A DNA stretch of 64,000 nt from Arcobacteraceae bacterium (lineage in GTDB: Bacteria > Campylobacterota > Campylobacteria > Campylobacterales > Arcobacteraceae), in contig JBLWVX010000001.1 of the NCBI GenBank assembly GCA_048268245.1, positions 1 through 64,000 on the forward strand. Direction: 5' to 3'. This document shows positions 34,313-51,684 of this stretch, piece after piece. A program made the translations under genes and the position numbers. How positions within the stretch are numbered: the stretch's first letter is position 1; every line of letters starts with the position of its first letter. The notes below the pieces were generated by a model. It saw only the letters and a list, made by a program, of their open reading frames with translations. It was not told the DNA's origin and did no database searches.

Positions 34313-34351
34313 TCCAGTCCAATTTAAGAAGAACAACTTAAATTAGAGCAT

Positions 34352-34427
34352 GACCCGTTAGCTCAGCTGGTAGAGCATCTCCCTTTTAAGGAGGTGGCCG
34401 AAGGTTCGAATCCTTCACGGGTCACCA
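34352..34427 (+). tRNA. tRNA-Lys(UUU)
   Basis: Acceptor GACCCGT/ACGGGTC, anticodon loop CTTTTAA, GTTCGAAT, encoded CCA. Confidence 0.95.
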
Positions 34428-34445
34428 TTTAAATATTACTTTGAT

Positions 34446-34520
34446 GGCCCCTTCATCTAGCGGTTAGGATCCATGGTTTTCATCCATGTCACAGGAGTTC
34501 GAGTCTCCTAGGGGTCACCA
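34446..34520 (+). tRNA. tRNA-Glu(UUC)
   Basis: Anticodon arm CATGG-TTTTCAT-CCATG, T-loop, CCA. Confidence 0.95.
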
Positions 34521-34524
34521 TCAA

Positions 34525-34600
34525 GGTCGATTAGCTCAGTTGGTAGAGCGCTACCCTTACAAGGTAGATGTCAGAAGTTCGAGTCTTCTATCGACCACCA
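34525..34600 (+). tRNA. tRNA-Val(UAC)
   Basis: Anticodon arm CTACC-CTTACAA-GGTAG, CCA. Confidence 0.95.
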
Positions 34601-34620
34601 CTTTCTTATTATAAAATCAT

Positions 34621-34697
34621 GCGGATGTAGTTTAGTTGGTTAGAATGCCTGCCTGTCACGCAGGAGGTCGCGAGTTCGAGTCTCGTCATCCGCGCCA
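34621..34697 (+). tRNA. tRNA-Asp(GUC)
   Basis: Anticodon arm CCTGC-CTGTCAC-GCAGG, CCA. Confidence 0.95.
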
Positions 34698-34811
34698 TGA
34701 TTTAAAATTTCACACTTATCTTTTAATAATTTATTTAATCCCTTATAAAAGTGTTATTTTATATAAAAAAGGCTATCCTATTATAGTTAAATTTCAGGAA
34801 GCAAAAAATAA

Positions 34812-36395
34812 ATGTTTAAAGCAAAAAGTTTATATCATCTAATAGTTTACAGTATTCTATTTATTGTAGTACTAATCTCATTTTTCACCTTCATTATTAT
34901 AAATAATGCCCATGACGAATTACAAGAAAAAATCGTAGCTTTAAAAGAAGACTTTACAAGTAACCAAAAAGAACTTTTAAAAAACGATATAAATTCTGTA
35001 ATTAGTTTTATAGATTATTATCATAAAAAATATGAAGGCACTAAATCAGAAGAACAAATAAAGAAAGAAGTATTAAAAGCTATTAGTGAAATGAAGAAAA
35101 GCAAAAATATAAATGACTATATATTTATTTATAGCTTTGAGGGTGAATTACTTTTCCACCCTATTACAAAGGAAAGAGTTGGAGCAAATAGAATAAGTAT
35201 GCAAGATAACAATGGAAAATTTGTTATCAAAGAACTTATTGAAAACTCTAAGAAATATATGGGTGGATATGTTGAATATATTTGGTATAAGCCAGATATC
35301 AATAAAAATGCAAATAAAATCTCATACTCTAATGCTTATAAAGAATGGAATTGGACTATTGGAAAAGGTGTTTACCTTGATGAAATAGATAAGTTAGTTA
35401 GAGAAAAGAATGAAGAGTACAATCAAAAAATGTCTGATTATACTTTACAAATCACATCATTGACAATAATGCTAGTTCTTTACTCTATTTTTATTTATAA
35501 GAATGCTACAATACTTATTGTAAATGATGTAAAAGAAATTGGTAAATATTTTAAAGAATCACAAGATAATGATGAAGAAATTGATCAAAATAGAATTATA
35601 TTTGGAGAGTTTAAAGTAATTGCAAATTATGCAAATGATGCTATGACAAATATAAAACTAAAAACTCATATGCTTGAAGACTTAAATAAAAACTTAGAAT
35701 ATAAAGTTGATGAAAAAACAAGAGAACTTACTAAGCTTATTCAATCACAAAAAGATTTTATTAAAAACTCAGTGCATGAAATAAATACACCACTTTCAAT
35801 AATACAAACAAATATTGACTTACTTAAAATGAAAGTTCCAAATAATAAATATATCACACATATTGAATCAGGTTCTAAAATAATTCAATATATTTATGAT
35901 GATCTATCTTATTTAATAAAAAAAGATAGAGTTGTGTATGAAAAAGAGTATTTAGAGTTTTCAGATATTTTAACACATAGAATTGACTTCTTTGATGAAA
36001 TAGCTGTATCTAACTCTTTATATTTTATTTGTAACATTGAAGAAGATATTTATATTAAATTTAATAAGACAGAACTTCAAAGAATAGTTGATAATAATCT
36101 TTCAAATGCAATAAAATACTCATTCCCAAAATCGCCTATTTTTGTTAGATTAGATTACATAAATGATAAGGAGGTTGAGTTCTCAGTTTGTACTAACTCC
36201 CAAAAGATAGAGTCTCAAAATAAAATATTTGATGACTTCTATAGAGAAAACAGTGCTAGAGGTGGCTTTGGTTTAGGATTAAGAATAGTAAAAGATATTT
36301 GTGATAAAAATAGCGTTACTATAAAACTAGAGTCTAATGACAAGGAAACAAAATTTACATATAGGTTTAAAATAAATGAAGATACTACTACTTGA
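34812..36395 (+). CDS. Cache-domain sensor histidine kinase
   Basis: Periplasmic YIFIY..HP..D.NGK..GGYVEYIWYKP..KISY..WNWTIGKGVY (Cache_2-like), HEINTPL, DNNLSNAIKY, GFGLGL. Confidence 0.9.
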   Translation: MFKAKSLYHLIVYSILFIVVLISFFTFIIINNAHDELQEKIVALKEDFTSNQKELLKNDINSVISFIDYYHKKYEGTKSEEQIKKEVLKAISEMKKSKNINDYIFIYSFEGELLFHPITKERVGANRISMQDNNGKFVIKELIENSKKYMGGYVEYIWYKPDINKNANKISYSNAYKEWNWTIGKGVYLDEIDKLVREKNEEYNQKMSDYTLQITSLTIMLVLYSIFIYKNATILIVNDVKEIGKYFKESQDNDEEIDQNRIIFGEFKVIANYANDAMTNIKLKTHMLEDLNKNLEYKVDEKTRELTKLIQSQKDFIKNSVHEINTPLSIIQTNIDLLKMKVPNNKYITHIESGSKIIQYIYDDLSYLIKKDRVVYEKEYLEFSDILTHRIDFFDEIAVSNSLYFICNIEEDIYIKFNKTELQRIVDNNLSNAIKYSFPKSPIFVRLDYINDKEVEFSVCTNSQKIESQNKIFDDFYRENSARGGFGLGLRIVKDICDKNSVTIKLESNDKETKFTYRFKINEDTTT

Positions 36396-37038
36396 AGATG
36401 AATTAATGTTAAATAATGCCATTTGTGAGTATTTAAGAAATATTGGTCACATGGTAGAGAGTTTTACTGATGGACAAGATGCAATAGATAATATAGATAC
36501 ATCTTTTGATTTATTGATATTAGATATAAATGTTCCATCTAAAGATGGTTTTACAATTCTAGAAGATTTAAATAGAAAGAAAATCTATATACCAACTATA
36601 TTTATTTCTGCGTTAATAGATATAGAAGATATTTCAAAAGCATATGAACTAGGTGCAAGGGAGTACTTAAAAAAACCTTTCCACTTAGAAGAGTTAGGAA
36701 TTAAAATTAATCTAATTTTGAAAAAAGAGCAAAGTAATACATCTCATATTAGATTTTCAGAGAATTACTCATACTCAAAAGACAAACAAACACTATACTT
36801 TAATGGTGAACCTCAAAGTCTTACAAAAAAACAATTAGAAATTATTCATATATTAGCACTTAATATTAACATGATTGTAGACTTTGAAAGATTTAGAATT
36901 GATATCTGGGATGGAGAAAATATCGACAATCCAACTATAAGAGCTGAAATTTCAAGATTAAAGAAAGCACTAAAAGAAGACTTTATCAAAAATATCAGAG
37001 GTTTAGGCTACAAAATTGACAGATATTATTCTTCTTAA
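36376..37038 (+). CDS. OmpR-family response regulator
   Basis: LLEDE, LDINVP, KKPF, ISRLKK..NIRGLGYK; overlaps the kinase gene. Confidence 0.92.
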   Translation: MKILLLEDELMLNNAICEYLRNIGHMVESFTDGQDAIDNIDTSFDLLILDINVPSKDGFTILEDLNRKKIYIPTIFISALIDIEDISKAYELGAREYLKKPFHLEELGIKINLILKKEQSNTSHIRFSENYSYSKDKQTLYFNGEPQSLTKKQLEIIHILALNINMIVDFERFRIDIWDGENIDNPTIRAEISRLKKALKEDFIKNIRGLGYKIDRYYSS

Positions 37039-37073
37039 CAAAGTACTATAAAATGGCTCTTTCAGAGTCATTT

Positions 37074-37140
37074 TGCTACGTTCATACTACGTTTAAAAAA
37101 ACTTTTTCAAAATTTTTTTCAATTGCTACCTTTTTGCTAT
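37074..37140 (+). promoter_or_regulatory. Two TGCTAY-N5-TGCTAY-type repeats upstream of DUF4212/SSS
   Basis: tgctac/tactac at 37074/37085 and tgctac/tgctat at 37124/37135; TATACT begins 10 bp after the second pair. Confidence 0.65.
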
Positions 37141-37218
37141 CTACACTTATTATACTTTCAATGTTAGATTATTAAACGCTTTAGAGTTTAATATCAAAAT
37201 CAATAAGGAGAGCAGAAT

Positions 37219-37473
37219 ATGAGTCCAGAAAAAGCACAAGCATACTGGAAAGAAAATATTTCAATGATACTTAAACTATTAGTAGTTTGGTTCGTTGTTT
37301 CTTTCGGATGTGGAATTTTATTCATAAATGAACTTAACACTATCGAAATTAGTGGTGTTAAATTAGGTTATTGGTTTGCACAACAAGGTGCAATTTACGT
37401 ATTTGTTATCTTAATCTTTATATACGTAAAGGTTATGACAAGTATCGATGAGAAATACGGCGTAAACGAGTAG
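37219..37473 (+). CDS. DUF4212 small membrane partner of SSS transporter
   Basis: AYWKEN..WFVVSFG..LGYWFAQQGAI. Confidence 0.88.
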   Translation: MSPEKAQAYWKENISMILKLLVVWFVVSFGCGILFINELNTIEISGVKLGYWFAQQGAIYVFVILIFIYVKVMTSIDEKYGVNE

Positions 37474-37486
37474 GGAGAAAGAAAAG

Positions 37487-39382
37487 ATGGAATTACAATC
37501 ATTAATTTACCTATTCGTAGGTATTTCATTCGCAATTTATATTGGTATTGCACTTTGGGCAAAAGCTGGTTCAACTAAGGACTTTTATGTTGCAGGTGGG
37601 GGAGTTCACCCAGTAGCAAACGGTATGGCGACTGCTGCGGACTGGATGTCAGCTGCATCATTTATCTCTTTAGCAGGTATCATTTCATTCAAAGGTTCTG
37701 ATGGTGGTGCTTACTTAATGGGTTGGACTGGTGGATACGTTCTACTAGCAATGTTATTAGCACCTTACTTAAGAAAGTTTGGTAAGTTTACAGTTCCTGA
37801 TTTCGTTGGTGACAGATACTACTCTGACACAGCTAGATTAGTTGCAGTTATTTCAGTTATTTTCGTTTCGTTCACATATGTTGCTGGACAAATGAGAGGT
37901 GTTGGTATCGTATTCTCAAGATTCTTACAAGTTGATGTAAATACAGGTGTATTAATTGGTATGGCAATTGTATTCTTCTACTCTGTTCTTGGTGGTATGA
38001 AGGGTATTACATATACACAAGTTGCACAATATGTAGTAATGATTTTTGCATACATGATTCCTGCAATTTTCTTATCATTACAAGTTACTGATACGTTCTT
38101 ACCACAATTAGGTATTTTTGCAACTACTACATTTGCATTTGATTCAGGGGTACAAGTAATCCCAGAAGGCACATATCTGTTACATGCATTGGATACAGCT
38201 GTTTCTGATTTAGGATTCAATGAGTATACTCAACCAGGTAACTTATGGAATATGTTTATGTTAACTACTGCGTTAATGTTAGGTACTGCTGGTTTACCAC
38301 ACGTTATTGTTAGATTCTTTACAGTTCCAACTGTTAAAGATGCTAGAATTTCAGCAGGTTGGGCGTTAATCTTTATTGCATTAATGTATACAACTATTTC
38401 ATCTGTATCTTCATTCTCAAGAGTGAACTTAATTAAAAACTTACAAAATACTGAGTATAAAGCATTTGTTGCTGGTGAATTAAAGCATGCTGATGGTACA
38501 CCAAATGATGGTAACTGGTTTAAAACTTGGGAAAATGGTGGATTAATCGCATGGAATGATAGAAATGGCGATGGTAAAATCCAATATGCTACTGGAAAAG
38601 CTTTCGAAGGTGCTAAAGGTAAGCCTGCATTCGATGGTGATAAAAGAGCAGAAGATGGTCATAGATTAACTACTAACCCTGCTGGACCTGCATCTGAAGC
38701 TGAATTAGCTAAAGGTAATGGAATTGCAAATGAGTTATATGTTGATAGAGATATTATGGTACTTGCTAACCCTGAGATTGCAAACTTACCTAACTGGGTA
38801 ATCGCATTCATCGCAGCTGGTGGTCTTGCAGCAGCATTATCTACAGCAGCAGGTTTATTACTTGTAATTGCTTCAGCAATTTCACATGACTTAATGGGTC
38901 AAGTTATATTTAAAGATAAAGAAACTGGTAAATCTACATTAAACGAGAAAACTGAGTTAATGTGGGCAAGAATTTCAGCTGTAGCTGCTATTTGTGTTGC
39001 TGGTTACTTAGGAATTAACCCTCCAGGATTCGTTGCACAAGTTGTTGCGTTCGCATTTGGTTTAGCGGCAGCAGCATTCTTCCCAACAATTATCCTTGGT
39101 GTATTTGATAAGAGAATGAACAAAGAAGGTGCGATTGCTGGTATTTTAACTGGTTTAATTTTCACATTCGGTTACATTATCTACTTCGTATTCTTAGGTG
39201 GAGATCCAAAAGATTACTTCTTAGGAATTCATCCAACTGGTATTGGTACAATCGGTACATTACTTCACTTAATCGTGGCAGTAGTTGTTTCTAGAATGAC
39301 ACCAGAACCACCACAAGAAATTCAAGATCTAGTAGAGAAAATCAGAATCCCTTCAGGAGCTGGTGAGGCTGTAGATCACTAA
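37487..39382 (+). CDS. Sodium:solute symporter, VC2705/acetate-uptake type
   Basis: [29 protein letters not shown], extracytoplasmic insert with DRNGDGKIQY. Confidence 0.9.
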   Translation: MELQSLIYLFVGISFAIYIGIALWAKAGSTKDFYVAGGGVHPVANGMATAADWMSAASFISLAGIISFKGSDGGAYLMGWTGGYVLLAMLLAPYLRKFGKFTVPDFVGDRYYSDTARLVAVISVIFVSFTYVAGQMRGVGIVFSRFLQVDVNTGVLIGMAIVFFYSVLGGMKGITYTQVAQYVVMIFAYMIPAIFLSLQVTDTFLPQLGIFATTTFAFDSGVQVIPEGTYLLHALDTAVSDLGFNEYTQPGNLWNMFMLTTALMLGTAGLPHVIVRFFTVPTVKDARISAGWALIFIALMYTTISSVSSFSRVNLIKNLQNTEYKAFVAGELKHADGTPNDGNWFKTWENGGLIAWNDRNGDGKIQYATGKAFEGAKGKPAFDGDKRAEDGHRLTTNPAGPASEAELAKGNGIANELYVDRDIMVLANPEIANLPNWVIAFIAAGGLAAALSTAAGLLLVIASAISHDLMGQVIFKDKETGKSTLNEKTELMWARISAVAAICVAGYLGINPPGFVAQVVAFAFGLAAAAFFPTIILGVFDKRMNKEGAIAGILTGLIFTFGYIIYFVFLGGDPKDYFLGIHPTGIGTIGTLLHLIVAVVVSRMTPEPPQEIQDLVEKIRIPSGAGEAVDH

Positions 39383-39389
39383 AACTAAC

Positions 39390-39413
39390 AAGTATACCTT
39401 CGGGTATACTTTT
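39390..39413 (+). terminator. Intrinsic terminator with UUCG loop
   Basis: aagtatacc-ttcg-ggtatactt then Ts. Confidence 0.8.
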
Positions 39414-39474
39414 AGTGTTTTTTTATGTTATTATAACTACTAATATAAAAAAATACTATTACAAGGAGACTTCA

Positions 39475-41289
39475 ATGAGTCTACAAGACCAGGAAGCATT
39501 TCTATCAAAAATCCACCCTTTTGAAGTATTGACTGAAGAACAACTAGACACTTGTATCAAACACATGGACATAGCTTACTATGCTAAAGACTCAACTTTA
39601 ATTAGTCCAGAAAAGATTCCAAACTATTTTTTTATCATAATAAAAGGTACTGTATACGAATACAAAGAAGATGAAGTTGTAATGGATTACCATCAACAAG
39701 ACTCTTTTGATGCAAACTCTTTAATATATGGAGAGAGTAAAAATACTTTTAAAGTTCATGAAGATTTAATTTGTTATGAACTTGAGAAAAAGACTTTTTT
39801 AAATCTAATTGAAAATAATAAAGCATTTAAAGACTTCTTTTTAGAAAATCTTGTAAATAGAATTAAAACACTTAAAGATAAAGAGTACACTTCTCAATTG
39901 TCATCTTTCATGATTGCAAAAGTCGATGATGCTCTTGTTCATGATGCATGTATTGTAGAAGAAGATACAAAACTTTTAGATGCAATCGAAAAATCAATGG
40001 AATATAAAACATCTACAATAATAGTAAAAAGAGATAATGAATATGGAATTATTACAGATTCACTTTTGAAAGTAAAAGTTTTACTAGAAGGTAGAGACTT
40101 AAGTATTCCTGTAAAAGAGATTGCTATTTTTCCACTAATGACAGTTTTTAATGATGACTATTTATTTGATGCTCTATCAGTTTTAATAAAAAGAAATATA
40201 AAAAGAGTTGGAGTAGTAAATTCTCAAGGAGAAATGCAAGGAATTTTAGAACAAATTGATGTTTTATCACACTTTGCGAATAATACTTATATAGTAGATA
40301 CACAAATTAAGAAATCTAAAAACATTGAAGATTTAAAAAATGCAAGTAAAGATTTACTTGATATTATAAAATCCCTACAAGCAAAAGGGGTAAAAGTCCA
40401 TCATATTTCAAACTTAATAGGACAATTAAATACAAAAGTTTATAAAAAACTATACAAATTAGTTGTTCCTGAAGAACTACAAAAAAGTGCCTGCTTTATT
40501 GTAATGGGAAGTGAGGGAAGAAATGAACAAATTATAAAAACAGATCAAGATAATGCTTTAGTAGTAAAAAGTGGAATTGATGTTGAACAATACAGACCAT
40601 ATATGGAAAAAATGACTGAAACACTAATTGATTTTGGATACCCACCATGCGAAGGTAATATTATGGTATCAAATCCATTTTGGTGTAAAACAGTTGATGA
40701 CTATAAAAAAGAAACTGCAAGATGGATTGAAGCACCTGATATGCAAAACTATATGGACTTAGCAATATTTTTTGACTCTTATGCAGTTGCTGGGGATAAA
40801 GAACTTTTAATTAATTTAAAAGATGATTTATTTAATAAACTTCATGATAAAGATGTATTTATGGCATATTTTGCAAAAGCTACTTTAACATTTGATACAC
40901 CAAGTACAGTGGCTAACTTTATGACTAAAAAACACACAATTGATATTAAAAAAACTGCTGTATTCCCAATAGTTCAAGGTATTAGAAGTTTAGCTTTAAG
41001 AGAAAGAATTAGAGAAACTACAACAGTAAGAAGAATCAAAATTTTAGAGCAAAGAAAAATTTTAGAAAAAGATAGAGCTGCTGAGCTACTTGAAGCTTTT
41101 GATGTTGTAAACACTTTAAGATTAAATGCCCATTTATCTTACTTGCAAGAAAATAAAGAACTTACAAATGACATAGATACTCACACTCTTGGTAAAATAG
41201 AAAGAGATTTATTAAAAGATTCATTCAAAATAGTTATAGACTTCAAAAAGTTTATAAATTATACATTTAAAATAGATAAGATTTCATAA
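39475..41289 (+). CDS. cNMP-binding + CBS + nucleotidyltransferase (DUF294) protein, copy 1
   Basis: IHPF N-terminal cNMP domain, CBS pair, MGSEGRNEQ..TDQDNAL NTase motif, DIKK..PIVQGIR C-domain. Start placed at 39475 after AGGAG. Confidence 0.88.
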   Translation: MSLQDQEAFLSKIHPFEVLTEEQLDTCIKHMDIAYYAKDSTLISPEKIPNYFFIIIKGTVYEYKEDEVVMDYHQQDSFDANSLIYGESKNTFKVHEDLICYELEKKTFLNLIENNKAFKDFFLENLVNRIKTLKDKEYTSQLSSFMIAKVDDALVHDACIVEEDTKLLDAIEKSMEYKTSTIIVKRDNEYGIITDSLLKVKVLLEGRDLSIPVKEIAIFPLMTVFNDDYLFDALSVLIKRNIKRVGVVNSQGEMQGILEQIDVLSHFANNTYIVDTQIKKSKNIEDLKNASKDLLDIIKSLQAKGVKVHHISNLIGQLNTKVYKKLYKLVVPEELQKSACFIVMGSEGRNEQIIKTDQDNALVVKSGIDVEQYRPYMEKMTETLIDFGYPPCEGNIMVSNPFWCKTVDDYKKETARWIEAPDMQNYMDLAIFFDSYAVAGDKELLINLKDDLFNKLHDKDVFMAYFAKATLTFDTPSTVANFMTKKHTIDIKKTAVFPIVQGIRSLALRERIRETTTVRRIKILEQRKILEKDRAAELLEAFDVVNTLRLNAHLSYLQENKELTNDIDTHTLGKIERDLLKDSFKIVIDFKKFINYTFKIDKIS

Positions 41290-41921
41290 TGTTTGCTAAT
41301 TTTATTAAAAACTGGAAAAAAAGATCTCTTAAAGATAAAAAATATCAATATCTTTTTGATGAACCATTAACTGATGAATATGTTTGTTTAGACTGTGAAA
41401 CTACAGGATTAAGTCCAAGAAAAGATGAGATTTTGTCAATTGGGGCTGTTGTTATTAAAAAAAACAAAATACTTATGAGAAAAACCTTAAATATTTTTGT
41501 TAAACCATCTAAAAAAATTGATTCAGAATCTATAAAAATACACCATATAAGACCTATTGATTTAGAAAACGCAGTAGATCCAAAAGATGCAATTTTAGAA
41601 CTTTTAGATTTTATAGGAAGTAGACCAATAGTTGGCTATTACATAAAATTTGATGTAGCAATGATCTCAAAATATACAAAAAAATATATTGGTATTTCTT
41701 TACCTAATGAAACCATAGAAGTTTCCTCTATGTATTACAAAACTAGAAAAAAATCAAGTGACTATGAATTTATTGATTTAAAATTCGATACTATTATGAA
41801 AGAACTTGAGCTTCCAAAACTTGGAAAGCATGATGCATTAAATGATGCAATTATGACTTCTATGATGTTTTTAAAGCTTAAAGACTTAACTCCAGCTAAA
41901 ACAACATTCTATACTAATTAA
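41289..41921 (+). CDS. DEDDh 3'-5' exonuclease (DnaQ-like), copy 1
   Basis: DCETTG, VGYYIKFD, HDALNDA; start overlaps the DUF294 stop. Confidence 0.88.
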   Translation: MFANFIKNWKKRSLKDKKYQYLFDEPLTDEYVCLDCETTGLSPRKDEILSIGAVVIKKNKILMRKTLNIFVKPSKKIDSESIKIHHIRPIDLENAVDPKDAILELLDFIGSRPIVGYYIKFDVAMISKYTKKYIGISLPNETIEVSSMYYKTRKKSSDYEFIDLKFDTIMKELELPKLGKHDALNDAIMTSMMFLKLKDLTPAKTTFYTN

Positions 41922-42072
41922 AAAAGAGAATTTAAAACGTTATTAGTTTCTCTTTTTATTAGCTTCTAAAAGTTACACTTACAAATATTTCTAATTAAAT
42001 TACACTTAAATTACATAAATGATATTTTCTTGTAAATTTATATATGTATAATTAATCTTATTTTTATTTAAA

Positions 42073-42098
42073 TGCTACACTAATGCTATTTTTGCTAT
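42073..42098 (+). promoter_or_regulatory. TGCTAY repeats upstream of DUF485/actP copy 1
   Basis: tgctac 42073, tgctat 42084, tgctat 42093; TGTATAAT at 42045-42052. Confidence 0.65.
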
Positions 42099-42148
42099 TT
42101 TCAGTGAATTTAGCATTTTAATTTAAATAAAATAACTAAGGAGGCAAA

Positions 42149-42463
42149 ATGAATGATGAGTTAGTACAACGAATCAAAAACAACCCTAAATATCAGGAGT
42201 TGGTACAAAAGAGAAGTGCATTCTCTCTAAAATTGGCAATTTTTGTATTGGTAATGTTTTATGCATATATTTTAACTATTGCATTTGATCCAACATTACT
42301 TGGTATAAAAACAGGTGAAGGTGTTATGACTTATGCATTCCCAGTGGCTGCTGCAATTATCATAATTGGTTTTATTACAACATTAATTTATGTTAAAAGA
42401 GCAAACGGCGAGTTTGAAGACTTAACTAATGAAATAAAAGATGATGTAAAGGATATTATGTAA
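42149..42463 (+). CDS. DUF485 (YjcH-like) membrane protein, copy 1
   Basis: [12 protein letters not shown], two TM helices, [10 protein letters not shown]. Confidence 0.88.
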
Positions 42464-44112
42464 TGTTTAGAATTATAGCACTAATTTCAATTTTTGCTGT
42501 GGCATTATTTGCTGCAGGAGATGCAAACTTCGAAGCATCAAAAAGAGAACTAAATATTCCAGCAATTATTATGTTCTTTATTTTTGTTGGTGGTACTTTA
42601 GGTATTACATATTGGGCAGCTAAAAAAACTAAATCTGCAAGTGATTTTTATACAGCAGGTGGAGGAATTTCTGGTTTCCAAAATGGTATGGCTATTGCAG
42701 GTGACTATATGTCAGCAGCATCATTCCTAGGTATTTCTGGTCTTGTTTACTTAAGTGGTTATGATGGATTAATTTATGCAGTTGGATTCTTAGTTGGATG
42801 GCCTGTAATTTTATTCTTAATGGCTGAAAAATTAAGAAACTTAGGTAAATTCACATTTGCTGATATTGCAGCTTATAGACTTGGACAAAAAGAGATTAGA
42901 ACTCTTGCAGCATTTGGTTCTCTGTCAGTTGTTACTTTATATTTAATTGCACAAATGGTTGGTTCAGGTAAACTGATTCAAGTATTATTTGGATTAGAGT
43001 ATGAATATGCTGTAATTCTTGTTGGTGTAATGATGATTATCTATGTAACATTTGGTGGTATGTTAGCTACTACTTGGGTTCAAATTATTAAAGCAGTATT
43101 ATTATTATCAGGGGTTTCATTTATGGGATTCATGGTATTAAGCCATTTTGGATTCTCTTTTGAAGCCTTAGCTACAAAAGCAGTTGAAACTCATGAAAAA
43201 GGTCAAGCAATCATGGAACCAGGAGGTTTTATTTCTGATCCAATTTCTGCTATTTCTTTAGGATTAGCATTAATGCTTGGTACTGCTGGTCTTCCTCATG
43301 TACTTATGAGATTTTTTACAGTTGGAAATGCTAAAGAAGCTAGAAAATCTGTTGTTTACGCAACTGGTTTTATTGGTTACTTCTACTTAGTAATTGCTGT
43401 TATTGGTTTAGGTGCAATTGTATTCTTAAACTCTGATGCAGGAGCTGTATATTTTGTTGATGGTAAACTATTTGGTGGAAATAATATGGCAGCAATTCAC
43501 TTATCACATATAGTAGGTGGTAATGTATTCTTAGGATTTATTTCAGCTGTTGCTTTTGCTACAATTTTAGCAGTTGTTGCAGGTCTTACACTTGCTGGTG
43601 CATCTGCAATTTCACATGATATTTATGCTTGTGTTATTAATCCAAATGCTTCTGAAGAGCAAGAAATTAAAGTTTCTAAAATAGCTGTAATTACAATTGG
43701 TATTGTAGGTGTTGTACTTGGTATTGCATTTGAAAATCAAAATATTGCATTTATGGTTGGTCTTGCATTTGCTATTGCTGCATCTGCTAATTTCCCTATT
43801 TTATTCTTATCTATTTATTGGAGAGGTTTAACTACAAGAGGTGCTTACCTTGGTGGATTTATTGGGTTACTAACTGCTGTTGTTTTAGTTATTGTAGGTC
43901 CTATTGTATGGGTACAAATTTTAGGAAATGAAGAAGCTTTATTCCCTTATAAACACCCTGCTTTATTCTCTGTAACTACAGCATTTATTGCAATTTGGTT
44001 CTTCTCTAAAACAGATAACTCTCAAAGAGCAAAAGATGAAAAAGAATTGTTTGAAGCACAAAATATTAGAGCTCAAACAGGTATTGGTGCATCAGGAGCA
44101 GTTGATCACTAA
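42463..44112 (+). CDS. actP: Cation/acetate symporter ActP-like, copy 1
   Basis: [48 protein letters not shown]; coupled to DUF485. Confidence 0.88.
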
Positions 44113-44118
44113 AACCAA

Positions 44119-44147
44119 TTACTAAAGAGATTTTTTCTCTTTAGTAA
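44119..44147 (+). terminator. Hairpin after actP copy 1
   Basis: ttactaaagaga / tctctttagtaa. Confidence 0.65.
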
Positions 44148-44370
44148 CAAATTATTATAACTATTACTAATTTTCACACTATAATTACAACTTTTATGAA
44201 ACTTTATGAAATTATAAAAATTTTCTTAAAAATTACAACTAATCTCTATATATAAATATAGCTTTTTTTGTTACTTTTTTACATTTTTTACATTTTATTT
44301 ACATATTTAATCAATTTTTTTTAATTATAAATAATTTTTTACATGTATAATAGAACTGTTTTTTCTTATT

Positions 44371-44387
44371 TGCTATTTTATTGCTAT
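44371..44387 (+). promoter_or_regulatory. TGCTAT-N5-TGCTAT upstream of DUF485/actP copy 2
   Basis: tgctat 44371 and 44382; TGTATAAT at 44344-44351. Confidence 0.65.
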
Positions 44388-44457
44388 TGGTTTTAAAGAG
44401 AATAAGAATTAGTTTTATGCATAATTTAATTTATGCAATAACGAAAAAGGAAGCAGA

Positions 44458-44772
44458 ATGAACGAAAAGTTAGTAGAGAGGATTGACAATAACCCTAAGT
44501 ATCATGAGCTAGTTTCAAAAAGAAATAGTTTTGGTATCAAATTAGGGATATTTGTTTTAGTGATGTTTTATGCATATATCTTAACAATTGCATTCAACAA
44601 AGAAATTTTAGCAACTAAAATAGGTGATGGTTTAACAACTGTAGCATTTCCTATTGCATTAGCTATCTTAATTATCAGTTTTATCACAACAGTGATTTAT
44701 GTTAGAAGAGCAAATGGGGAGTTTGAAGACCTAACAAATGAAATTAAAGAAGATGTAAAGGATTTAGTGTAA
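44458..44772 (+). CDS. DUF485 (YjcH-like) membrane protein, copy 2
   Basis: Paralogue of 42149-42463, same length. Confidence 0.88.
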
Positions 44773-46421
44773 TGTTTAGAATTTTAGCGCTTATTTCAGT
44801 TATTTCTTTAACAGCATTTGCAGCAGGTGATGCATCTTTTGAAGCTACAAAAAGAGAATTAAATATTCCTGCAATTATTATGTTCTTCATTTTTATTTTA
44901 GGAACATTAGGTTTAACATACTGGGCAGCAAAAAAAACAAAATCTGCTAGTGACTTCTATACAGCTGGTGGAGGAATCACAGGTTTTCAAAATGGTTTAG
45001 CAATTGCAGGTGACTATATGTCAGCAGCTGCATTCTTAGGTGTATCTGGTCTTATTTATATGAAAGGTTATGATGGAGTTATCTATGCTGTATCATTCTT
45101 AGTTGGTTGGCCAATTATTCTTTTCTTCATGGCTGAGAAATTAAGAAACTTAGGTAAGTTTACATTTACAGATATCGCAGCATACAGATTAGGTCAAAAA
45201 CAAATCAGAACATTAGCTGCATTTGGTACTATCTCTGTTGTTATATTATACCTTATTGCACAAATGGTTGGTGCTGGTAAATTAATTCAAGTTTTATTTG
45301 GTATGGAATATGAATTTGCAGTAATCCTTGTTGGTGTTATGATGATTATCTACGTAACATTTGGTGGTATGCTTGCAACTACATGGGTTCAAATTATTAA
45401 GGCATGTTTACTTTTATCTGGTGTTTCATTTATGGCTATCATGGTTTTATATCACTTTGATTTTAGTTTTGAATCATTAGCTGTAAAAGCTGTTGAAAAT
45501 CACAGTGCTGGTGAGTCAATTTTAGCTCCTGGTGGATTTATATCTGACCCTATTTCAGCTATTTCTTTAGGTATGGCTTTAATGCTAGGAACTGCTGGTC
45601 TTCCACACGTTCTTATGAGATTCTTTACAGTTGGTAATGCTAAAGAAGCTAGAAAATCTGTTGTTTATGCAACTGGTTTTGTTGGTTACTTCTGGATTAT
45701 CATTACAATCGTTGGTTTTGGTGCGATTGCATTCTTAAACTCTGATGCAGGTGCTGCGTACTTTGTTGATGGTAAGTTATTTGGTGGAAACAATATGGCA
45801 TCTATTCACTTATCACATATGTTAGGTGGTAATGCATTCTTAGGATTTATTTCAGCAGTTGCATTTGCTACTATTTTAGCAGTTGTATCTGGTCTTACAT
45901 TATCAGCAGCAGGTGCTATTTCTCATGATCTTTATGCAAATGTAATTAACACAAATTCTACAGATGAACAAGTAGTTAAAGTATCTAGATATACAGTTGT
46001 TTTAGTTGGTATTGTAGGTGTTACATTAGGTATTGCGTTTGAGCAACAAAATATTGCTTATATGGTTGGTCTTGCATTTGGTATTGCAGCATCAGCTAAC
46101 TTCCCAATTTTATTCTTATCAATTTACTGGTCTCAGTTAACAACAAGAGGGGCATTCTTAGGTGGATTATGTGGTCTTATCTCTGCTGTTACACTTGTAA
46201 TTGTTGGACCAATTGTATGGGTACAAATTTTAGGAAATGAAGAAGCATTATTCCCTTATAAACACCCTGCTCTATTCTCTGTAACAATTGCATTTGTTGC
46301 TATCTGGTTCTTCTCTAAGACAGATAATTCAGAAAAAGGGAAAGCGGAGAAAAAATTATTTAAAGCTCAAAATATTAGAGCAAATACAGGTATTGGTGCA
46401 GCAGGAGCTGTTGATCACTAA
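44772..46421 (+). CDS. actP: Cation/acetate symporter ActP-like, copy 2
   Basis: Same length and motifs as copy 1; [12 protein letters not shown] variant. Confidence 0.85.
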
Positions 46422-46430
46422 GCCTTTTAA

Positions 46431-46460
46431 AATATCAAAGAAGGTTACTTCTTTGATATT
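46431..46460 (+). terminator. Hairpin after actP copy 2
   Basis: aatatcaaagaag / cttctttgatatt. Confidence 0.7.
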
Positions 46461-46603
46461 TATTATTAACTACAAATTTTAAAATCTAACTTATAACATT
46501 ACTATAAAATTTACTTATATTATATTTTACACTATTTAATTCTAGTAATTATTATTTTATTTTTTATTAGCTAAAATAAATAAAGAGAAATTAGGAAACA
46601 TAA

Positions 46604-48445
46604 ATGAGTATATTAGAACAGAAAACATTTTTAAGTTCAATTCATCCTTTTGAGCACTTAACAAAAGCTCAACTAGATGTCTTTTCAGAACATATAGATA
46701 TTGTATATTTCAAAAAAAATGAAATAATACAAAAGCAAGGAGCTGAACCAAAGTTTTTATACTTTGTATTAAAAGGAATAGTACAAGAAAAACAAGAAGA
46801 TGAAGTATTATCAATTTTTTCAAAAAACGAACTATTTGATGCAATTTCACTAATTGAAAACTATTCAAAACATACATTCGTTACAGCACAAGAAACAATT
46901 TGTTATTCTTTACCAAGAGAAATATTTATCAAAACTTTACATGAGAATCAAAACTTAGAAAGCTATTTCTTTCAATCAATTTCACAAAAACTTAACAATC
47001 ATGTTGACCAAGAAAAAAATAAAGAGATTGCAAATATCATGATTGCAAAAGTAAAAGATGCCAATGTACATAATGCAGTTATTACAGATACACAAAAAAC
47101 TATATTTGAAGCTGCTACAATAATAAAAGAAGAAAAGGTCCCAACTTTACTTCTAAGAGATGAAAATGATGAAATGTATATTGTTACAGATTCAGATTTT
47201 AGACAAAAAGTAATTTTAAATAGAATGGATTTTGATGATAAAATCATAAAGATAGCATCAAAAGGTTTAATCTATGTAAATGAAAATGATTTTTTATTTA
47301 ATGCCCAATTAATTATGGCAAAACATGGACTAAAAAGAGTTGTTGTTAAAAATGATAAAAATGAAATAGTTGGTATCTTAGATCAAATTTCACTATCTTC
47401 ATTTTTTGCAACTAATACATTCTCTGTTTCAAATCAAATTGTAAAAGCAGAAACTATTGAAGAATTAAAACAAGCTTCACTATCATTTATAAAAATAGTT
47501 AAATCTTTAAATGCAAAAGGTGTAAAAGTTGAATTTATTGCAAAACTAATAAATCAACTAAATAAAAAACTAATTGCAAAACTATTTAGTTTCTTAGCTC
47601 CTGATGAATTAAAAGGTAAATCATGTTTAGTTGTAATGGGAAGTGAAGGAAGAAGTGAGCAAATTTTAAAAACAGATCAAGATAATGCATTGATACTAGC
47701 AGATGATTGTGAAATAAGTGATGAGAAATTAAATGAGTTTACACATAAGTTTACAGAAACCTTAGTTAATTTTGGTTTTCCGAGATGTGAGGGTAATATC
47801 ATGGTTTCTAATCCATATTGGAGAAGAAGAAAAAAAGATTTTAAAGATTTAATTTACTCTTGGGTTAATGAACCAAGTCCTGATAATATGATGAATACTG
47901 CAATTTTTTATGACTCAATTTGTATAGCAGGTGACAAACAAATAATTCTTGATTTAAAAGAATACTTATTTAAGGTTGTAGGAGACACACAAACATTTAA
48001 CTCACAATTTGCAAAAGTTATCATGAGTTTTGATGTACCTTTAGGTTTCTTTGATGGTTTTGTATTTAATAGTGATGATAAAGAGCATAAAGATGAACTT
48101 GATATAAAAAAAGGTGGGATATTTATTTTAGTTCAAAGTATTAGAGCATTAAGTTTAGAAAAAAAACTATTTAATACAAATACAATAAAAAGAGTAAAAG
48201 CTCTAAAAGAGATGGGTATATTTGATGATGAATTTGCACAAGAAGTTATCATGGCATTTAACTATTTATCAAATCTAAAACTAAAATCAAATTTAGAAAA
48301 AATTGATAAAAAAGAAAATATTGACAACTATATTAATCCTGATGATTTAAATACAATGCAAAAAGACTTATTAAAAGACTCTTTTAAAATTGTTAATAAA
48401 TTAAAGAAAAAATTAGAATACCATTTTAAGTTGAACTATGTTTAG
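46604..48445 (+). CDS. cNMP-binding + CBS + nucleotidyltransferase (DUF294) protein, copy 2
   Basis: IHPF, CBS pair, MGSEGRSEQILKTDQDNAL, CEGNIMVSNP, LDIKKGG. Confidence 0.88.
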   Translation: MSILEQKTFLSSIHPFEHLTKAQLDVFSEHIDIVYFKKNEIIQKQGAEPKFLYFVLKGIVQEKQEDEVLSIFSKNELFDAISLIENYSKHTFVTAQETICYSLPREIFIKTLHENQNLESYFFQSISQKLNNHVDQEKNKEIANIMIAKVKDANVHNAVITDTQKTIFEAATIIKEEKVPTLLLRDENDEMYIVTDSDFRQKVILNRMDFDDKIIKIASKGLIYVNENDFLFNAQLIMAKHGLKRVVVKNDKNEIVGILDQISLSSFFATNTFSVSNQIVKAETIEELKQASLSFIKIVKSLNAKGVKVEFIAKLINQLNKKLIAKLFSFLAPDELKGKSCLVVMGSEGRSEQILKTDQDNALILADDCEISDEKLNEFTHKFTETLVNFGFPRCEGNIMVSNPYWRRRKKDFKDLIYSWVNEPSPDNMMNTAIFYDSICIAGDKQIILDLKEYLFKVVGDTQTFNSQFAKVIMSFDVPLGFFDGFVFNSDDKEHKDELDIKKGGIFILVQSIRALSLEKKLFNTNTIKRVKALKEMGIFDDEFAQEVIMAFNYLSNLKLKSNLEKIDKKENIDNYINPDDLNTMQKDLLKDSFKIVNKLKKKLEYHFKLNYV

Positions 48446-49058
48446 AATTATAAAAAACTATTTTAATAAAAAAAATCTAAAAGACGATAAATATCAATAT
48501 CTATTTGATAAAGCTCATGAAGATGAATATGTTTGTTTTGATTGTGAAACAACAGGTTTAGATCCCAAAAAAGATGAAATAATCTCAATAGGTGCTGTAA
48601 TCATAAAAAACAATACAATTATTTCAAGTAAAAAATTTGTAAAGTTTGTAAAACCAAAAACTAAACTTCAAGAAGATGCTATTAAAGTACATCATATAAG
48701 AGAGATGGATTTAGAAAATGCTTTAAATATTGATGATGTTATTTATGAATTCTTAGATTATATAGGGAATAGAACACTTGTAGGATATTTTTTAGAGTTT
48801 GATATTGCAATGATAGATAAATATGTAAAACCTAGACTTGGTATTTCTTTACCTAATAAAAGAATTGAAGTATCTGCAATCTATCATGACTATAAAATAG
48901 AAGCTATACCACAAGGGAATATAGATTTAAGATTTGACACAATTATGAATGAATTACAAATTCCTGTTATGGGAAAACATGATGCATATAATGATGCATT
49001 AATGACTTCATTAATATTTTTGAAATTAAAAAATATTTCAAAGCTAAAAATACAATAA
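48438..49058 (+). CDS. DEDDh 3'-5' exonuclease, copy 2
   Basis: DCETTG, VGYFLEFD, HDAYNDA; overlaps the DUF294 gene end. Confidence 0.88.
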   Translation: MFRIIKNYFNKKNLKDDKYQYLFDKAHEDEYVCFDCETTGLDPKKDEIISIGAVIIKNNTIISSKKFVKFVKPKTKLQEDAIKVHHIREMDLENALNIDDVIYEFLDYIGNRTLVGYFLEFDIAMIDKYVKPRLGISLPNKRIEVSAIYHDYKIEAIPQGNIDLRFDTIMNELQIPVMGKHDAYNDALMTSLIFLKLKNISKLKIQ

Positions 49059-49141
49059 AGGAAACTTAAACTATGCTAAACTATCAAAAGTGTTACATTT
49101 ACTTTTGATAGATACGTAAAACGTTAATTTTTTATTCATTT

Positions 49142-49158
49142 TGTACAATAATTGTACA
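49142..49158. promoter_or_regulatory. TGTACA-N5-TGTACA box upstream of pta-ackA
   Basis: tgtaca-ataat-tgtaca. Confidence 0.55.
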
Positions 49159-49309
49159 TTAATAAAGTAATATATAACACTTAAGAGCCATTTAGACCAT
49201 ATTTTATTACGATTCTGCACATTTTCTTTTTTTATCAAATTTTATGTATATTTTATGTACTTTTCGAAAAATATAATATACAATATAAATGATCAAGATT
49301 ATAAACCAA

Positions 49310-49342
49310 TGCTATTTTTTTGCTATGGTTATAAATTATAAT
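49310..49342 (+). promoter_or_regulatory. TGCTAT-N5-TGCTAT plus TATAAT upstream of pta
   Basis: tgctat 49310 and 49321; TATAAT at 49337-49342, 10 bp after the repeat. Confidence 0.65.
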
Positions 49343-49377
49343 CTTTCACAAGTTTTTAAAGTAGAAAGGATAACTTA

Positions 49378-50373
49378 ATGGGTTTAATTAAAAGCATTAA
49401 AGAAAAAGCAAAGTTACAGCTAAGAACTATCGTTCTTCCCGAAACAGAAGATGAAAGAGTATTAAAAGCTACTCAAAAAGTTCTTGAAGAGAAAACTGCA
49501 AATGTTGTATTAATAGGTAATGAAGAAACAATCAAATCTGATGCTTCATCATGTGATGCAAATATTGAAGGAGCAACAATTGTTGACCCTAGAAAGTTTG
49601 AAAACATTGATAAATATATTGATGAGTTAGTTGAACTTAGAAAAAAGAAAGGTTTAACAAGAGAAGAAGCTACTGAAATCATGTTAAATGAACCTAGATT
49701 CTTTGGTTGTATGATGGTTAGACTTGGAGATGCTGATGGTTTAGTTGCAGGTTCTAACTCTCCTACGGCTGATGTTTTAAAAGCTGCTATTCAAGTTATT
49801 AAAACTGCACCTGGTATTAATACTGTATCATCTGCATTTATTATGGAAACTGCTGATGGAAAGTTTGGAGACAATGGTTTAATTCTATTTGCAGATTGTG
49901 CTGTTATTCCAGAACCAAATGCAGAACAATTAGCTGATATTGCTTGTGCAACTGCTGCTACTGCTAACTCTGTTGTAGGATTAGATCCAAGAGTTGCTAT
50001 GTTATCATTTTCAACAAAAGGTAGTGCAAATCATCCATTAGTTGATAAAGTACAATACGCTGTTGATATTTTACAAGAAAGAAATGTTGACTTCTCATTT
50101 GATGGTGAAATGCAAGCTGATGCAGCAATCGTTGAAGCAATTGGAGCTAAAAAAGCACCAGGCTCAGAAGTAGCTGGTAAAGCAAATGTTCTTGTATTCC
50201 CAGATTTACAATCAGGAAATATTGGATATAAATTAGTTCAAAGATTTGCAGATGCTGCAGCTCATGGACCAGTTGTTCAAGGTTTAGCAAAACCTGTAAA
50301 TGACCTTTCAAGAGGTTGTTCAGTTGATGATATCGCAAACTTAGTAGCTATTACAGCAACTCAAATTAAATAA
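49378..50373 (+). CDS. pta: Phosphate acetyltransferase (short type)
   Basis: IVLPETEDERV, FADCAV, LSFSTKGS, DGEMQADAA, NIGYKLVQR, NDLSRGC. Confidence 0.95.
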   Translation: MGLIKSIKEKAKLQLRTIVLPETEDERVLKATQKVLEEKTANVVLIGNEETIKSDASSCDANIEGATIVDPRKFENIDKYIDELVELRKKKGLTREEATEIMLNEPRFFGCMMVRLGDADGLVAGSNSPTADVLKAAIQVIKTAPGINTVSSAFIMETADGKFGDNGLILFADCAVIPEPNAEQLADIACATAATANSVVGLDPRVAMLSFSTKGSANHPLVDKVQYAVDILQERNVDFSFDGEMQADAAIVEAIGAKKAPGSEVAGKANVLVFPDLQSGNIGYKLVQRFADAAAHGPVVQGLAKPVNDLSRGCSVDDIANLVAITATQIK

Positions 50374-50402
50374 TTAAATCTATAAAAAAAAGGAAGCAAA
50401 AT

Positions 50403-51605: not shown

Positions 51606-51627
51606 TTTATTTTTTAAATTTTCTATA

Positions 51628-51662
51628 AAAAAAGGGATGAAGATAAACTTCATCCCTTTTTT
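51628..51662. terminator. Bidirectional terminator between ackA and sppA
   Basis: aaaaaagggatgaag / cttcatccctttttt. Confidence 0.8.
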
Positions 51663-51684
51663 ATTTTTAATATACAAATACTAT

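Follow-up and report, generated by a model that had tools for sequence, protein, structure and literature searches.

Two paralogous nucleotidyltransferase-exonuclease pairs beside monocarboxylate symporters in an Arcobacteraceae genome: a candidate reversible protein-modification switch

Organization of the locus

The window analysed here is a stretch of 64,000 nucleotides (nt) from an Arcobacteraceae bacterium (GenBank assembly GCA_048268245.1, contig JBLWVX010000001.1, positions 1 to 64,000 of the forward strand), and it carries two copies of a gene pair in which a multidomain nucleotidyltransferase (NTase) is followed by a small 3'-5' exonuclease, both standing among genes for the uptake and activation of monocarboxylates. 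The genome is 2.68 Mb in size, 99.3% complete and low in GC (about 28%). Genes were called from a listing of open reading frames combined with Pfam and NCBIfam profile scans, and the whole cluster was found to lie on the + strand.

The first pair is formed by NTase1 (39475-41289), for which Pfam gives a domain resembling those that bind cyclic nucleoside monophosphates (cNMP), a CBS pair, a DUF294 NTase domain and a DUF294_C domain, and by Exo1 (41289-41921), a DEDDh exonuclease of the PRK09145 family with an RNase_T match. The second pair, NTase2 (46604-48445) and Exo2 (48438-49058), shows the same domain compositions. Both exonucleases fall within PRK09145/NF006601, with 278 bits for Exo1 and 275 bits for Exo2 (cut-off 189). 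The stop codon of NTase1 and the ATG of Exo1 share one nucleotide (TAATG), and the overlap between NTase2 and Exo2 is 8 nt. The longest frame for NTase1 opens at a GTG codon at 39415, and it is the ATG at 39475 that aligns with the start of NTase2.

Upstream of the first pair lies a two-subunit symporter of the VC_2705 type, whose DUF4212 small subunit (37219-37473; PF13937, 119 bits; TIGR03647, 116 bits, cut-off 26) is separated by a 13-nt gap from the large sodium/solute symporter subunit (37487-39382; TIGR03648, 796 bits, cut-off 321). Between the two pairs are two successive copies of an ActP-type cation/acetate symporter operon, namely DUF485-a (42149-42463; PF04341, 95 bits), a small YjcH-like membrane protein, with ActP-a (42463-44112; NF006903, 905 bits), and DUF485-b (44458-44772; PF04341, 99.5 bits) with ActP-b (44772-46421; NF006903, 866 bits), the latter directly preceding the second pair. 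The NF006903 cut-off is 750 bits, and in both copies the DUF485 gene sits directly upstream of the ActP gene with a 1-nt overlap, so that both are assigned to ActP; since the stricter equivalog TIGR02711 was missed (843 and 793 bits versus 1099), the substrate of ActP-a and ActP-b is not certain. The results showed that the window holds two paralogous copies of a conserved COG2905/PRK09145 module, and that in each copy two translationally coupled genes follow an operon for a Na+/monocarboxylate symporter. A preliminary description made from the letters alone had placed two overlapping pairs at 39475-41921 and 46604-49058, each behind a symporter gene, and its coordinates, domains and overlaps were all correct.

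Genome-wide, exactly two DUF294 genes and two PRK09145 genes were counted, all of them in this cluster; a third match to PF03445 is weak and falls in a frame of 851 amino acids (aa). NTase1 and NTase2 are 40% identical, Exo1 and Exo2 58%, and ActP-a and ActP-b 82%, and judging from these identities the paralogues are old. NTase2 itself is 90-92% identical to proteins filed at NCBI under Arcobacter sp. and 81% identical to one Poseidonibacter protein.

Nucleotidyltransferases

Both NTases belong to COG2905, with 134 and 120 bits against DUF294 and DUF294_C for NTase1 and 133 and 142 bits for NTase2 (Pfam cut-offs 21 and 22.5). In a 63-sequence alignment, residues G346, S347, E348, G349, R350, E352, Q353, D358, Q359, D360 and D437 (NTase2 numbering) were invariant or at least 90% conserved, so that the Pol-beta motif and the third carboxylate (D437) are present in NTase2; NTase1 carries the same motif, which reads MGSEGRNEQIIKTDQDNAL. 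The earlier claim that the GSxGRxEQ/DQD motifs are intact was thus confirmed by the alignment and by the comparison of the two paralogues.

To identify the closest folds, the AF2 model of NTase2, with a predicted local distance difference test (pLDDT) value of 91.5, was searched against 48,161 PDB representatives. For residues 271-609, the top match among the 50 rows listed was the adenylylation domain of GlnE (3k7d_B; Z 24.0, root-mean-square deviation 3.0, 298 residues aligned), the second was the N-terminal domain of GlnE (1v4a_A; Z 23.9) and the third was DrrA bound to Rab8a (6yx5_B; Z 23.8, 293 residues aligned), while the remaining rows matched CBS or cNMP parts only, with Z values up to 17.2. 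Foldseek returned the identical top three. The GlnE domains and DrrA act on protein tyrosines. By sequence, neither NTase matched the NCBIfam models of GlnE and GlnD at E values up to 0.001, and no PDB chain matched the catalytic half of NTase2; the relation to GlnE and GlnD is confined to the level of fold and clan. The Biology Direct HEPN paper places DUF294_C with the GlnD/GlnE and HEPN-like NTase C-terminal domains. The kinship to GlnD and GlnE put forward at the outset was in this way borne out, with GlnE and DrrA as the closest folds.

The cNMP_binding and CBS matches exceed the Pfam cut-offs in both NTases, and these parts match known folds at Z 14-17. When the canonical phosphate-binding cassette of cNMP domains is taken as reference, the position of the arginine that contacts the cyclic phosphate is Arg in 18 of 63 sequences and Lys in 10 of 63, and the Glu position is mostly Ala. 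Because the cassette is degenerate, canonical binding of cNMP by the cNMP-like domain is improbable, and in this respect the preliminary statement that the domain binds a nucleotide is not supported. The eight NTase representatives of odd length were all canonical or truncated, and no fusion to a Cache or PAS domain was found among them. A defence-system reading was considered and dropped, as the NTases matched none of the PADLOC models and the exonucleases matched only generic DEDDh models.

Exonucleases

The active site of the exonucleases is likewise complete: in a 62-sequence alignment D35, E37, D122 and H181 were at least 90% conserved and D186 was invariant, in agreement with the preliminary description and with assignment to the DEDDh group. 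The AF2 model of Exo2 (pLDDT 90) is closest to Pol III epsilon (1j53_A; Z 22.0, root-mean-square deviation 1.4, 163 residues aligned), followed in order by DinG, PolC, ExoX, Cap18, TREX1-like proteins and RNase T, and the top sequence match among solved structures was 2p1j (E 1.2e-16). About 29 residues at the N-terminus of Exo2 form an extension that lies outside the coverage of the matched structures. The proofreading domains of Pol III epsilon and PolC are thus the best match in both structure and sequence, with the DEDDh residues kept; the exonucleases of the window differ from them in that they are stand-alone proteins of 206-210 aa with a family-specific N-terminal extension, are encoded with an NTase instead of a polymerase, and form an NCBIfam family of their own, NF006601. 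Among 14 control genomes, E. coli included, there was no PRK09145 match over the cut-off.

Predicted complex of NTase2 and Exo2

The exonuclease is predicted to dock on the cNMP-like domain of the NTase. The complex model of NTase2 with Exo2 gave a median score of 0.61 (0.52, 0.64 and 0.61 in the three runs) and the best control gave 0.00; the mark for such scores is reached by 116 of 157 solved complexes and by 2 of 215 mismatched pairs, counts that are rough in the present case, for which our own alignments were used. The runs agreed in at least 93% of the contacts, and the partner pLDDT was at least 78. On the side of NTase2 the predicted interface is made up of the edge strand 29-37 of the cNMP-like domain together with residues 5, 56-57, 97, 99 and 102, and on the side of Exo2 of strand 59-64 and the C-terminal helix 174-199. 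The model is unlikely to have reproduced a complex already solved, because by sequence the PDB holds no chain of the DUF294 catalytic domain.

The distribution of natural domain losses was also compared with this prediction. Short NTases that lack the cNMP-like domain were followed by an adjacent small exonuclease in 0 of 7 cases, versus 62 of 69 for the long forms, and this pattern, in which the seven short forms derive from about two clades, supports docking on the cNMP-like domain.

Recurrence, joint loss and phylogeny

The NTase family is large, with 4159 clusters at E values up to 0.001 in a library clustered at 50% identity. For the comparison of neighbourhoods, 80 related loci from Campylobacterota, Gamma-, Beta- and Alphaproteobacteria and Magnetococcales were searched by tblastn with the window proteins; these are the best 80 of at least 601 matches, so that they lean to closer relatives and are not independent of each other. 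Of the 76 loci with at least 800 nt of downstream DNA, 62 have a same-strand exonuclease gene that begins no more than 150 nt downstream, 8 have one at a distance of 1.9-5 kb downstream and 6 have none in the locus, and with a frequency of 62 of 76 the pairing is not a matter of chance. In 37 of 67 loci the gene immediately upstream, in the same orientation, encodes a symporter (25 of the ActP type and 12 of the VC_2705 type), and 33 of the 39 loci with at least 7 kb on each side contain a symporter somewhere. The neighbourhood had been described at the outset as recurrent, and the comparison of loci agreed with this for the exonuclease and for the symporter.

A PRK09145 match over the cut-off is present in 111 of the 121 Arcobacteraceae genomes, and at least 45 genomes other than the present one have two copies 4.7-15 kb apart on one contig, as counted from 150 listed matches with 151 more beyond them; the two-pair layout is therefore family-wide. 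None of the 10 genomes without PRK09145 over the cut-off has DUF294_C. Five of these 10 are at least 94% complete, and among the five ActP was over its cut-off in none and the VC_2705 symporter in one, so that both symporter types are absent in 4 of the 5 nearly complete relatives that lack the pair. The NTase and the exonuclease are lost together, mostly along with the symporters. A test of co-occurrence had been suggested at the outset, and its outcome was joint absence in 10 of 10 genomes.

Five genomes have an NTase without an adjacent exonuclease, and all of them encode one elsewhere, which is canonical in one case and part of a frame of 700-796 aa in four. In locus L049, a short NTase is followed by a 760-aa protein (L049:11636-13915) with an RNase_T domain at its C-terminus. 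The N-terminal parts of the 700-796-aa proteins that end in RNase_T (L049; G122-G125, L096-L100) gave no Pfam match at 1e-5, and tblastn gave a hint of a receiver domain in the RNase_T proteins of L048, L078 and L087. These long proteins look like a sensor-fused form of the same partner.

Quick maximum-likelihood trees were built for the NTases (86 rows) and for the adjacent exonucleases (65 rows), and the same subclades were recovered in both. The campylobacterotal NTase1/Exo1 clade comprises 12 rows, 10 of which stand beside a DUF4212 symporter, and the NTase2/Exo2 clade, of 9 and 8 rows, is linked to ActP almost throughout. A single Campylobacterota clade with support of 94 takes in both exonuclease paralogues, and so the duplication of the pair looks internal to the phylum. 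Over the whole tree, three changes between the ActP and VC_2705 labels suffice. A gammaproteobacterial clade linked to VC_2705 (Halomonas, Alcanivorax) is separate from the campylobacterotal one, and Sulfurimonadaceae NTases of the NTase1 lineage adjoin ActP, their clade joining the NTase1 clade with support of 100. In the exonuclease tree the Sulfurimonadaceae clade is unresolved, and an incongruence between the two trees was accordingly dropped as a finding, no conflict being shown. The congruence check that had been suggested thus returned the shared subclades.

In Vibrio, Agarivorans and Motilimonas the gene for a CrbS-like hybrid kinase stands on one side of the pair and acs on the other, no symporter being present within 1.5 kb, and CrbS-like kinases (PAS_7, HisKA, HATPase and receiver domains) flank the pair in L076, L065 and L050. 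In general, the two genes move together and become joined to one or another of the genes for the use of monocarboxylates. The idea of dedicated cognate pairs, one for each transporter subfamily, therefore stands only in part: synteny is conserved inside Campylobacterota, and across the tree the module switches among ActP, DUF4212-symporter and acs neighbourhoods.

Published genetics of related modules

Relatives of the module have been studied genetically in Pseudomonas. Compared through the descriptions in the papers concerned, PP_0354/PP_0353 of P. putida (alloputida) KT2440 and PA3233/PA3232 of P. aeruginosa have the same domain order and a downstream RNase_T gene in one operon, and they are likewise linked to actP/yjcH and to the use of short-chain acids. 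The P. putida operon of PP_0354 (cNMP, two CBS and NTase domains) and PP_0353 (RNase_T) is a direct target of ErdR (PMC9927547; bioRxiv 10.64898/2026.09.07.749794), and both genes are among those most dependent on MxtR/ErdR (bioRxiv 10.64898/2026.09.07.749794). In P. aeruginosa, PA3232-PA3235 are up about 16-fold on propionate (PMC9765439). On pyruvate, deletion of PP_0353, yjcH or actP-I impaired growth and deletion of PP_0354 had little effect (bioRxiv 10.64898/2026.09.07.749794). In Shewanella amazonensis and P. stutzeri, Price and co-workers found the DUF4212 symporters, which were associated with D,L-lactate and D-alanine, to be cofit with a 'COG2905 (RNase T domain protein)' encoded close by, and speculated that the RNase T-domain gene is needed for expression of the symporter (bioRxiv 10.1101/072470).

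The authors of the P. putida work, who describe the function as unclear, propose that cNMP and energy are sensed and that control is exerted through modification of proteins (PMC9927547; bioRxiv 10.64898/2026.09.07.749794); their preprint likens the module to the acetylation of Acs and the uridylylation of PII (bioRxiv 10.64898/2026.09.07.749794). The module, its neighbourhood and the protein-modification idea are thus already in the literature. The first description of the window had named no demonstrated mechanism, which agrees with what was found: a preprint of 2026 still calls the function unclear, and no demonstrated substrate or product of the module turned up in the literature searched.

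Proposed mechanism

From the anatomy, motifs, fold kinship, co-occurrence and synteny, together with the predicted complex, we infer a substrate, a sign and a target for the reaction. The reading with most support makes the module a sensor-gated switch of protein (oligo)nucleotidylylation acting on the uptake system, in which a GlnE/DrrA-like NTase writes and a bound DEDDh enzyme erases. The NTase would be a protein nucleotidyltransferase of the GlnE/DrrA type, its CBS pair would read the adenylate or energy state, and its degenerate cNMP-like domain would mainly serve to dock the small exonuclease. The NTase would place one or a few nucleoside monophosphates (NMPs) on a hydroxyl side chain of an uptake component, most likely the symporter or its small DUF485 or DUF4212 partner, and would thereby lower uptake. 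The bound DEDDh enzyme would then cleave the phosphodiester, free 5'-NMP and restore uptake, with chemistry as in its usual trimming of 3' ends. In this scheme the switch would be reversible, with the NTase acting negatively and the exonuclease positively, and the two pairs would be assigned to the two symporter systems.

The chemistry is plausible. When a DEDDh nuclease cleaves a phosphodiester, 5'-NMP is freed and the 3'-oxygen is the leaving group; on a modified protein the tyrosyl oxygen would replace this 3'-oxygen. A tyrosine of HepT receives three AMPs in succession from MntA (PMC7641770), and by analogy an NMP chain of this kind would plausibly be a natural substrate for a 3'-5' exonuclease. 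The published knock-outs fit an inhibitory writer and an activating eraser, because growth on pyruvate places the exonuclease mutant with the transporter mutants and leaves the NTase mutant nearly like the wild type, as expected if the exonuclease removes an inhibitory mark.

Several observations weigh against the proposed switch. Growth of P. putida on acetate or succinate is described as unaffected by deletion of PP_0354 or PP_0353 (PMC9927547; bioRxiv 10.64898/2026.09.07.749794), and on propionate the deletion of either gene slowed growth and deletion of actP-I or yjcH did not (bioRxiv 10.64898/2026.09.07.749794). Taken together, the propionate and acetate data mean that the sign is not simply one of a harmful NTase and a beneficial exonuclease, and that ActP is not the sole target. 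The loci linked to acs, like the propionate data, misfit a target restricted to the symporter. The closest relatives of the exonuclease all trim nucleic acids, and we know of no DEDDh enzyme that takes an NMP off a protein. No adduct, target or product of the module has been seen anywhere. The score of the predicted complex is the model's own confidence and not a measurement, and conservation at the interface was no higher than elsewhere (0.45 versus 0.40 for the NTase and 0.57 versus 0.53 for the exonuclease), random residue sets scoring as high in 2142 and 2387 of 10,000 draws; as random sets reach the same score so often, interface conservation was dropped as additional support.

The C-terminal tails of the symporters are the last point of this kind. 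These glycine/alanine-rich tails, encoded in the window at 39362-39382, 44092-44112 and 46401-46421 (+ strand), end in His, as do 40 of 42 ActP proteins (...GIGAxGAxxH) and 25 of 26 proteins of the VC_2705 type (...GAGxAxDH). Since the His tail is also found in E. coli ActP, which ends in ...GRAH, it is a family trait, and as E. coli has no PRK09145 over the cut-off, the tail was dropped as a module-specific mark of the target.

The writer/eraser idea of the preliminary description therefore keeps its match to the predicted complex and to the published genetics (the pyruvate phenocopy and the DUF4212 cofitness), and the symporter as the only target has to be given up in view of the propionate data from P. 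putida. Because the propionate and acs data misfit a symporter-only target and no DEDDh enzyme is known to have this activity, we hold the sensor-gated switch on the uptake system tentatively, as a reading with somewhat less than an even chance of being right. A more specific form of it would make the DnaQ-like DEDDh enzyme the first dedicated protein de-nucleotidylylase, docked on the pseudo-cNMP domain of a GlnE-like writer and stripping NMPs, singly or as short chains, from the Na+/monocarboxylate symporter complex, so that the uptake of organic acids would be gated through reversible (oligo)nucleotidylylation tuned to energy state, with one switch per symporter family in Arcobacteraceae; this version we consider doubtful.

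Alternative explanations

The same chemistry could be directed at a protein other than the symporter, one that activates short-chain acids or regulates their activation, such as Acs, AckA/Pta, enzymes of propionate metabolism or the two-component system. This would account for the position of the pair next to acs and a CrbS-like kinase in Vibrio, Agarivorans and Motilimonas, for the place of the second pair directly upstream of pta-ackA, for the reported need of both P. putida genes, and not of actP-I or yjcH, during growth on propionate, and for the parallel with Acs and PII drawn in the preprint. Acs is however excluded in the present genome, in which no frame exceeded the TIGR02188 cut-off (the best, an 853-aa frame on contig C7, gave 214 bits versus 725), so that acetate appears to be routed through AckA-Pta only and Acs cannot be the target here. 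The commonest neighbour, moreover, is a symporter (37 of 67 directly upstream, 33 of 39 anywhere in the locus), the cofitness and the phenocopy as reported involve transporter genes, and in 4 of the 5 nearly complete relatives the absence of the pair goes with that of both symporter types; a target other than the symporter is in our judgement unlikely. A similar low likelihood is given to an action on nucleic acids, whereby the NTase would add untemplated nucleotides to the 3' end of an RNA (a symporter mRNA or a small RNA), the exonuclease would trim them and the balance would set stability or translation. The exonuclease is a standard DnaQ-like 3'-5' nuclease, and an inhibitory tail that it removes would produce the same asymmetry between the mutants. 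The catalytic and helical domains of the NTase, on the other hand, resemble GlnE and DrrA, and neither a poly(A) polymerase nor a CCA-adding enzyme nor another RNA NTase appeared among the 50 structure rows listed, which is no proof; Pfam gave no RNA-binding domain, and an Rfam scan of positions 34000-52000 at gathering thresholds yielded four tRNAs and nothing else.

It is also conceivable, and to us improbable, that a small nucleotide, linear or cyclic, is synthesized and degraded by the pair as a signal to the symporters or to metabolism. Synthases are commonly coupled with a nuclease dedicated to degrading their product, the structural neighbours of the exonuclease include Cap18 of a CBASS operon (Z 18.2), and the cNMP-like and CBS domains could bind such a ligand. 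Yet no gene for a receptor or effector accompanies the pair in the loci examined, the NTases lack a match to the PADLOC defence models, the phosphate cassette is degenerate (Arg in 18 of 63), and we know of no NTase of the GlnE/DrrA type that makes signalling nucleotides. The mildness of the deletion phenotypes, with none on acetate, might finally be taken to mean that a housekeeping DNA or RNA nuclease merely sits beside an unrelated sensor protein. Such co-location is very hard to reconcile with the overlapping start and stop codons, the adjacency in 62 of 76 loci from four proteobacterial classes and Campylobacterota, the joint absence in 10 of 10 genomes, the shared subclades of the two trees and a complex model that passes its controls, and we consider it most improbable.

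Comparison with known systems

The proposed sensor-gated switch resembles GlnE and GlnD both in structure, through an NTase core with a helical substrate-binding domain of the same fold (Z 24.0 and 23.9 to the GlnE halves), and in logic, through a sensor-gated writer joined to a removing activity. In GlnE the modification is removed by a second NTase domain and in GlnD by an HD domain, whereas in the window a separate DEDDh nuclease would remove it; the sensor domains of the window NTases are of the cNMP-like and CBS kinds and not ACT domains. The AMPylation domain of DrrA/SidM has the same fold (Z 23.8, 293 residues aligned), and the likeness is structural only, since DrrA/SidM is a secreted effector that acts on host Rab proteins without sensor domains or a partner nuclease. 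MntA of the MntA/HepT system (MNT-HEPN, type VII toxin-antitoxin) shares the Pol-beta NTase, the GSx10DxD motif and the transfer of several AMPs to a partner tyrosine; it differs in being a minimal NTase without sensor domains, its partner is an RNase toxin, and its abstract describes no dedicated eraser. Unlike the Pseudomonas system, the window has two diverged pairs, one of them after a DUF4212/VC_2705 symporter, in a genome without Acs.

What is new here is the duplicated, family-wide layout of two pairs beside two symporter families, the different two-component system with a candidate operator described below, the lack of Acs, the kinship in structure, the degenerate cNMP-like domain as predicted docking site and the data on joint loss. 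If the writer/eraser proposal is true, it would add a new post-translational control of nutrient uptake and a new job for a proofreading-type nuclease, and it would explain a large family of domains of unknown function. The COG2905/PRK09145 pair is very widespread, as the 4159 NTase clusters indicate, and specificity could be tested naturally in the Arcobacteraceae layout, where two diverged pairs stand beside two symporter families in the absence of Acs.

Regulation, transcription and neighbouring genes

Upstream of the symporters are genes for a sensor histidine kinase with a periplasmic sCache_2 domain (34812-36395; Pfam sCache_2 116 bits, HisKA, HATPase_c) and for an OmpR/PhoB-type response regulator with receiver and winged-helix domains (36376-37038; Pfam Response_reg, Trans_reg_C), which overlap by 20 nt. 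The top NCBIfam match of the kinase is the N-terminal part of MctS, far under its cut-off, and from its domains the kinase is a candidate for the carboxylate sensor of the cluster. According to Pfam, the local kinase and regulator are not of the CrbS/CrbR kind, which is marked by a hybrid kinase with an N-terminal domain resembling a solute symporter; the Pseudomonas modules belong to the CrbS/CrbR (MxtR/ErdR) regulon, and the Arcobacteraceae window has a Cache kinase with an OmpR-type regulator.

A direct repeat, TGCTA-N6-TGCTA, is found on the + strand upstream of DUF4212 (37124-37139), DUF485-a (42073-42088), DUF485-b (44371-44386) and pta (49310-49325), and is thus common to the symporter operons and the operon of phosphotransacetylase (pta, 49378-50373; TIGR00651, 388 bits, cut-off 311) and acetate/propionate kinase (ackA, 50403-51605; TIGR00016, 499 bits, cut-off 293). 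The genome contains 13 sites, four in the cluster and nine on contigs C2, C3, C5, C12, C17 and C18, and about 9.6 are expected per spacing from composition. The repeat is kept upstream of DUF4212 in six related loci (L008, L009, L011, L022, L025 and L026) and 62-73 nt upstream of pta in four (L008, L009, L011 and L025), and in L024, where an NTase1-type pair is detached from the symporter, a copy lies 57 nt upstream of the NTase. The repeat is likely the operator of the adjacent OmpR-type regulator, and it is a candidate mark of a local regulon that takes in both kinds of symporter and pta-ackA. Sigma-70-like sites were fewer than by chance, 58 versus a shuffle mean of 86, and so carry no information.

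The regions upstream of NTase1 and NTase2 in the window hold no copy of the repeat. Between the symporter and NTase1 lies a hairpin with a T-rich tract resembling a terminator (39390-39411, + strand; 39383-39430 folds at -14.9 kcal/mol), and between ActP-b and NTase2 a 14-bp hairpin (46430-46461, + strand; -16.5 kcal/mol). Because no repeat precedes the NTases and stable hairpins stand 3' of the symporter genes, the pairs are probably expressed at a lower level by read-through.

Contigs from RNA libraries of four runs of one oyster metatranscriptome study, a kind of library that can contain DNA, agreed with the window letter for letter across parts of both symporter operons, across 47690-48254 of NTase2 and across pta-ackA. 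All four runs have contigs starting at 37192-37212, three have contigs that stop at 39311-39313 with adapter letters beyond, and these ends may be the transcript ends of the DUF4212-symporter operon. Among the contigs listed, none bridged the symporter and NTase1 or ActP-b and NTase2, and cover of NTase1-Exo1 was about zero, from which absence cannot be read with contigs.

Two minor features of the surroundings were also recorded. The interval between Exo2 and pta is a 319-nt spacer in the window, and at this place five relatives (L008, L009, L010, L011 and L025) hold one or two additional ackA-like genes that are 58-63% identical to the AckA of the window. The four tRNA genes found by Rfam (52-74 bits) stand in tandem at 34352-34694, directly upstream of the kinase gene.

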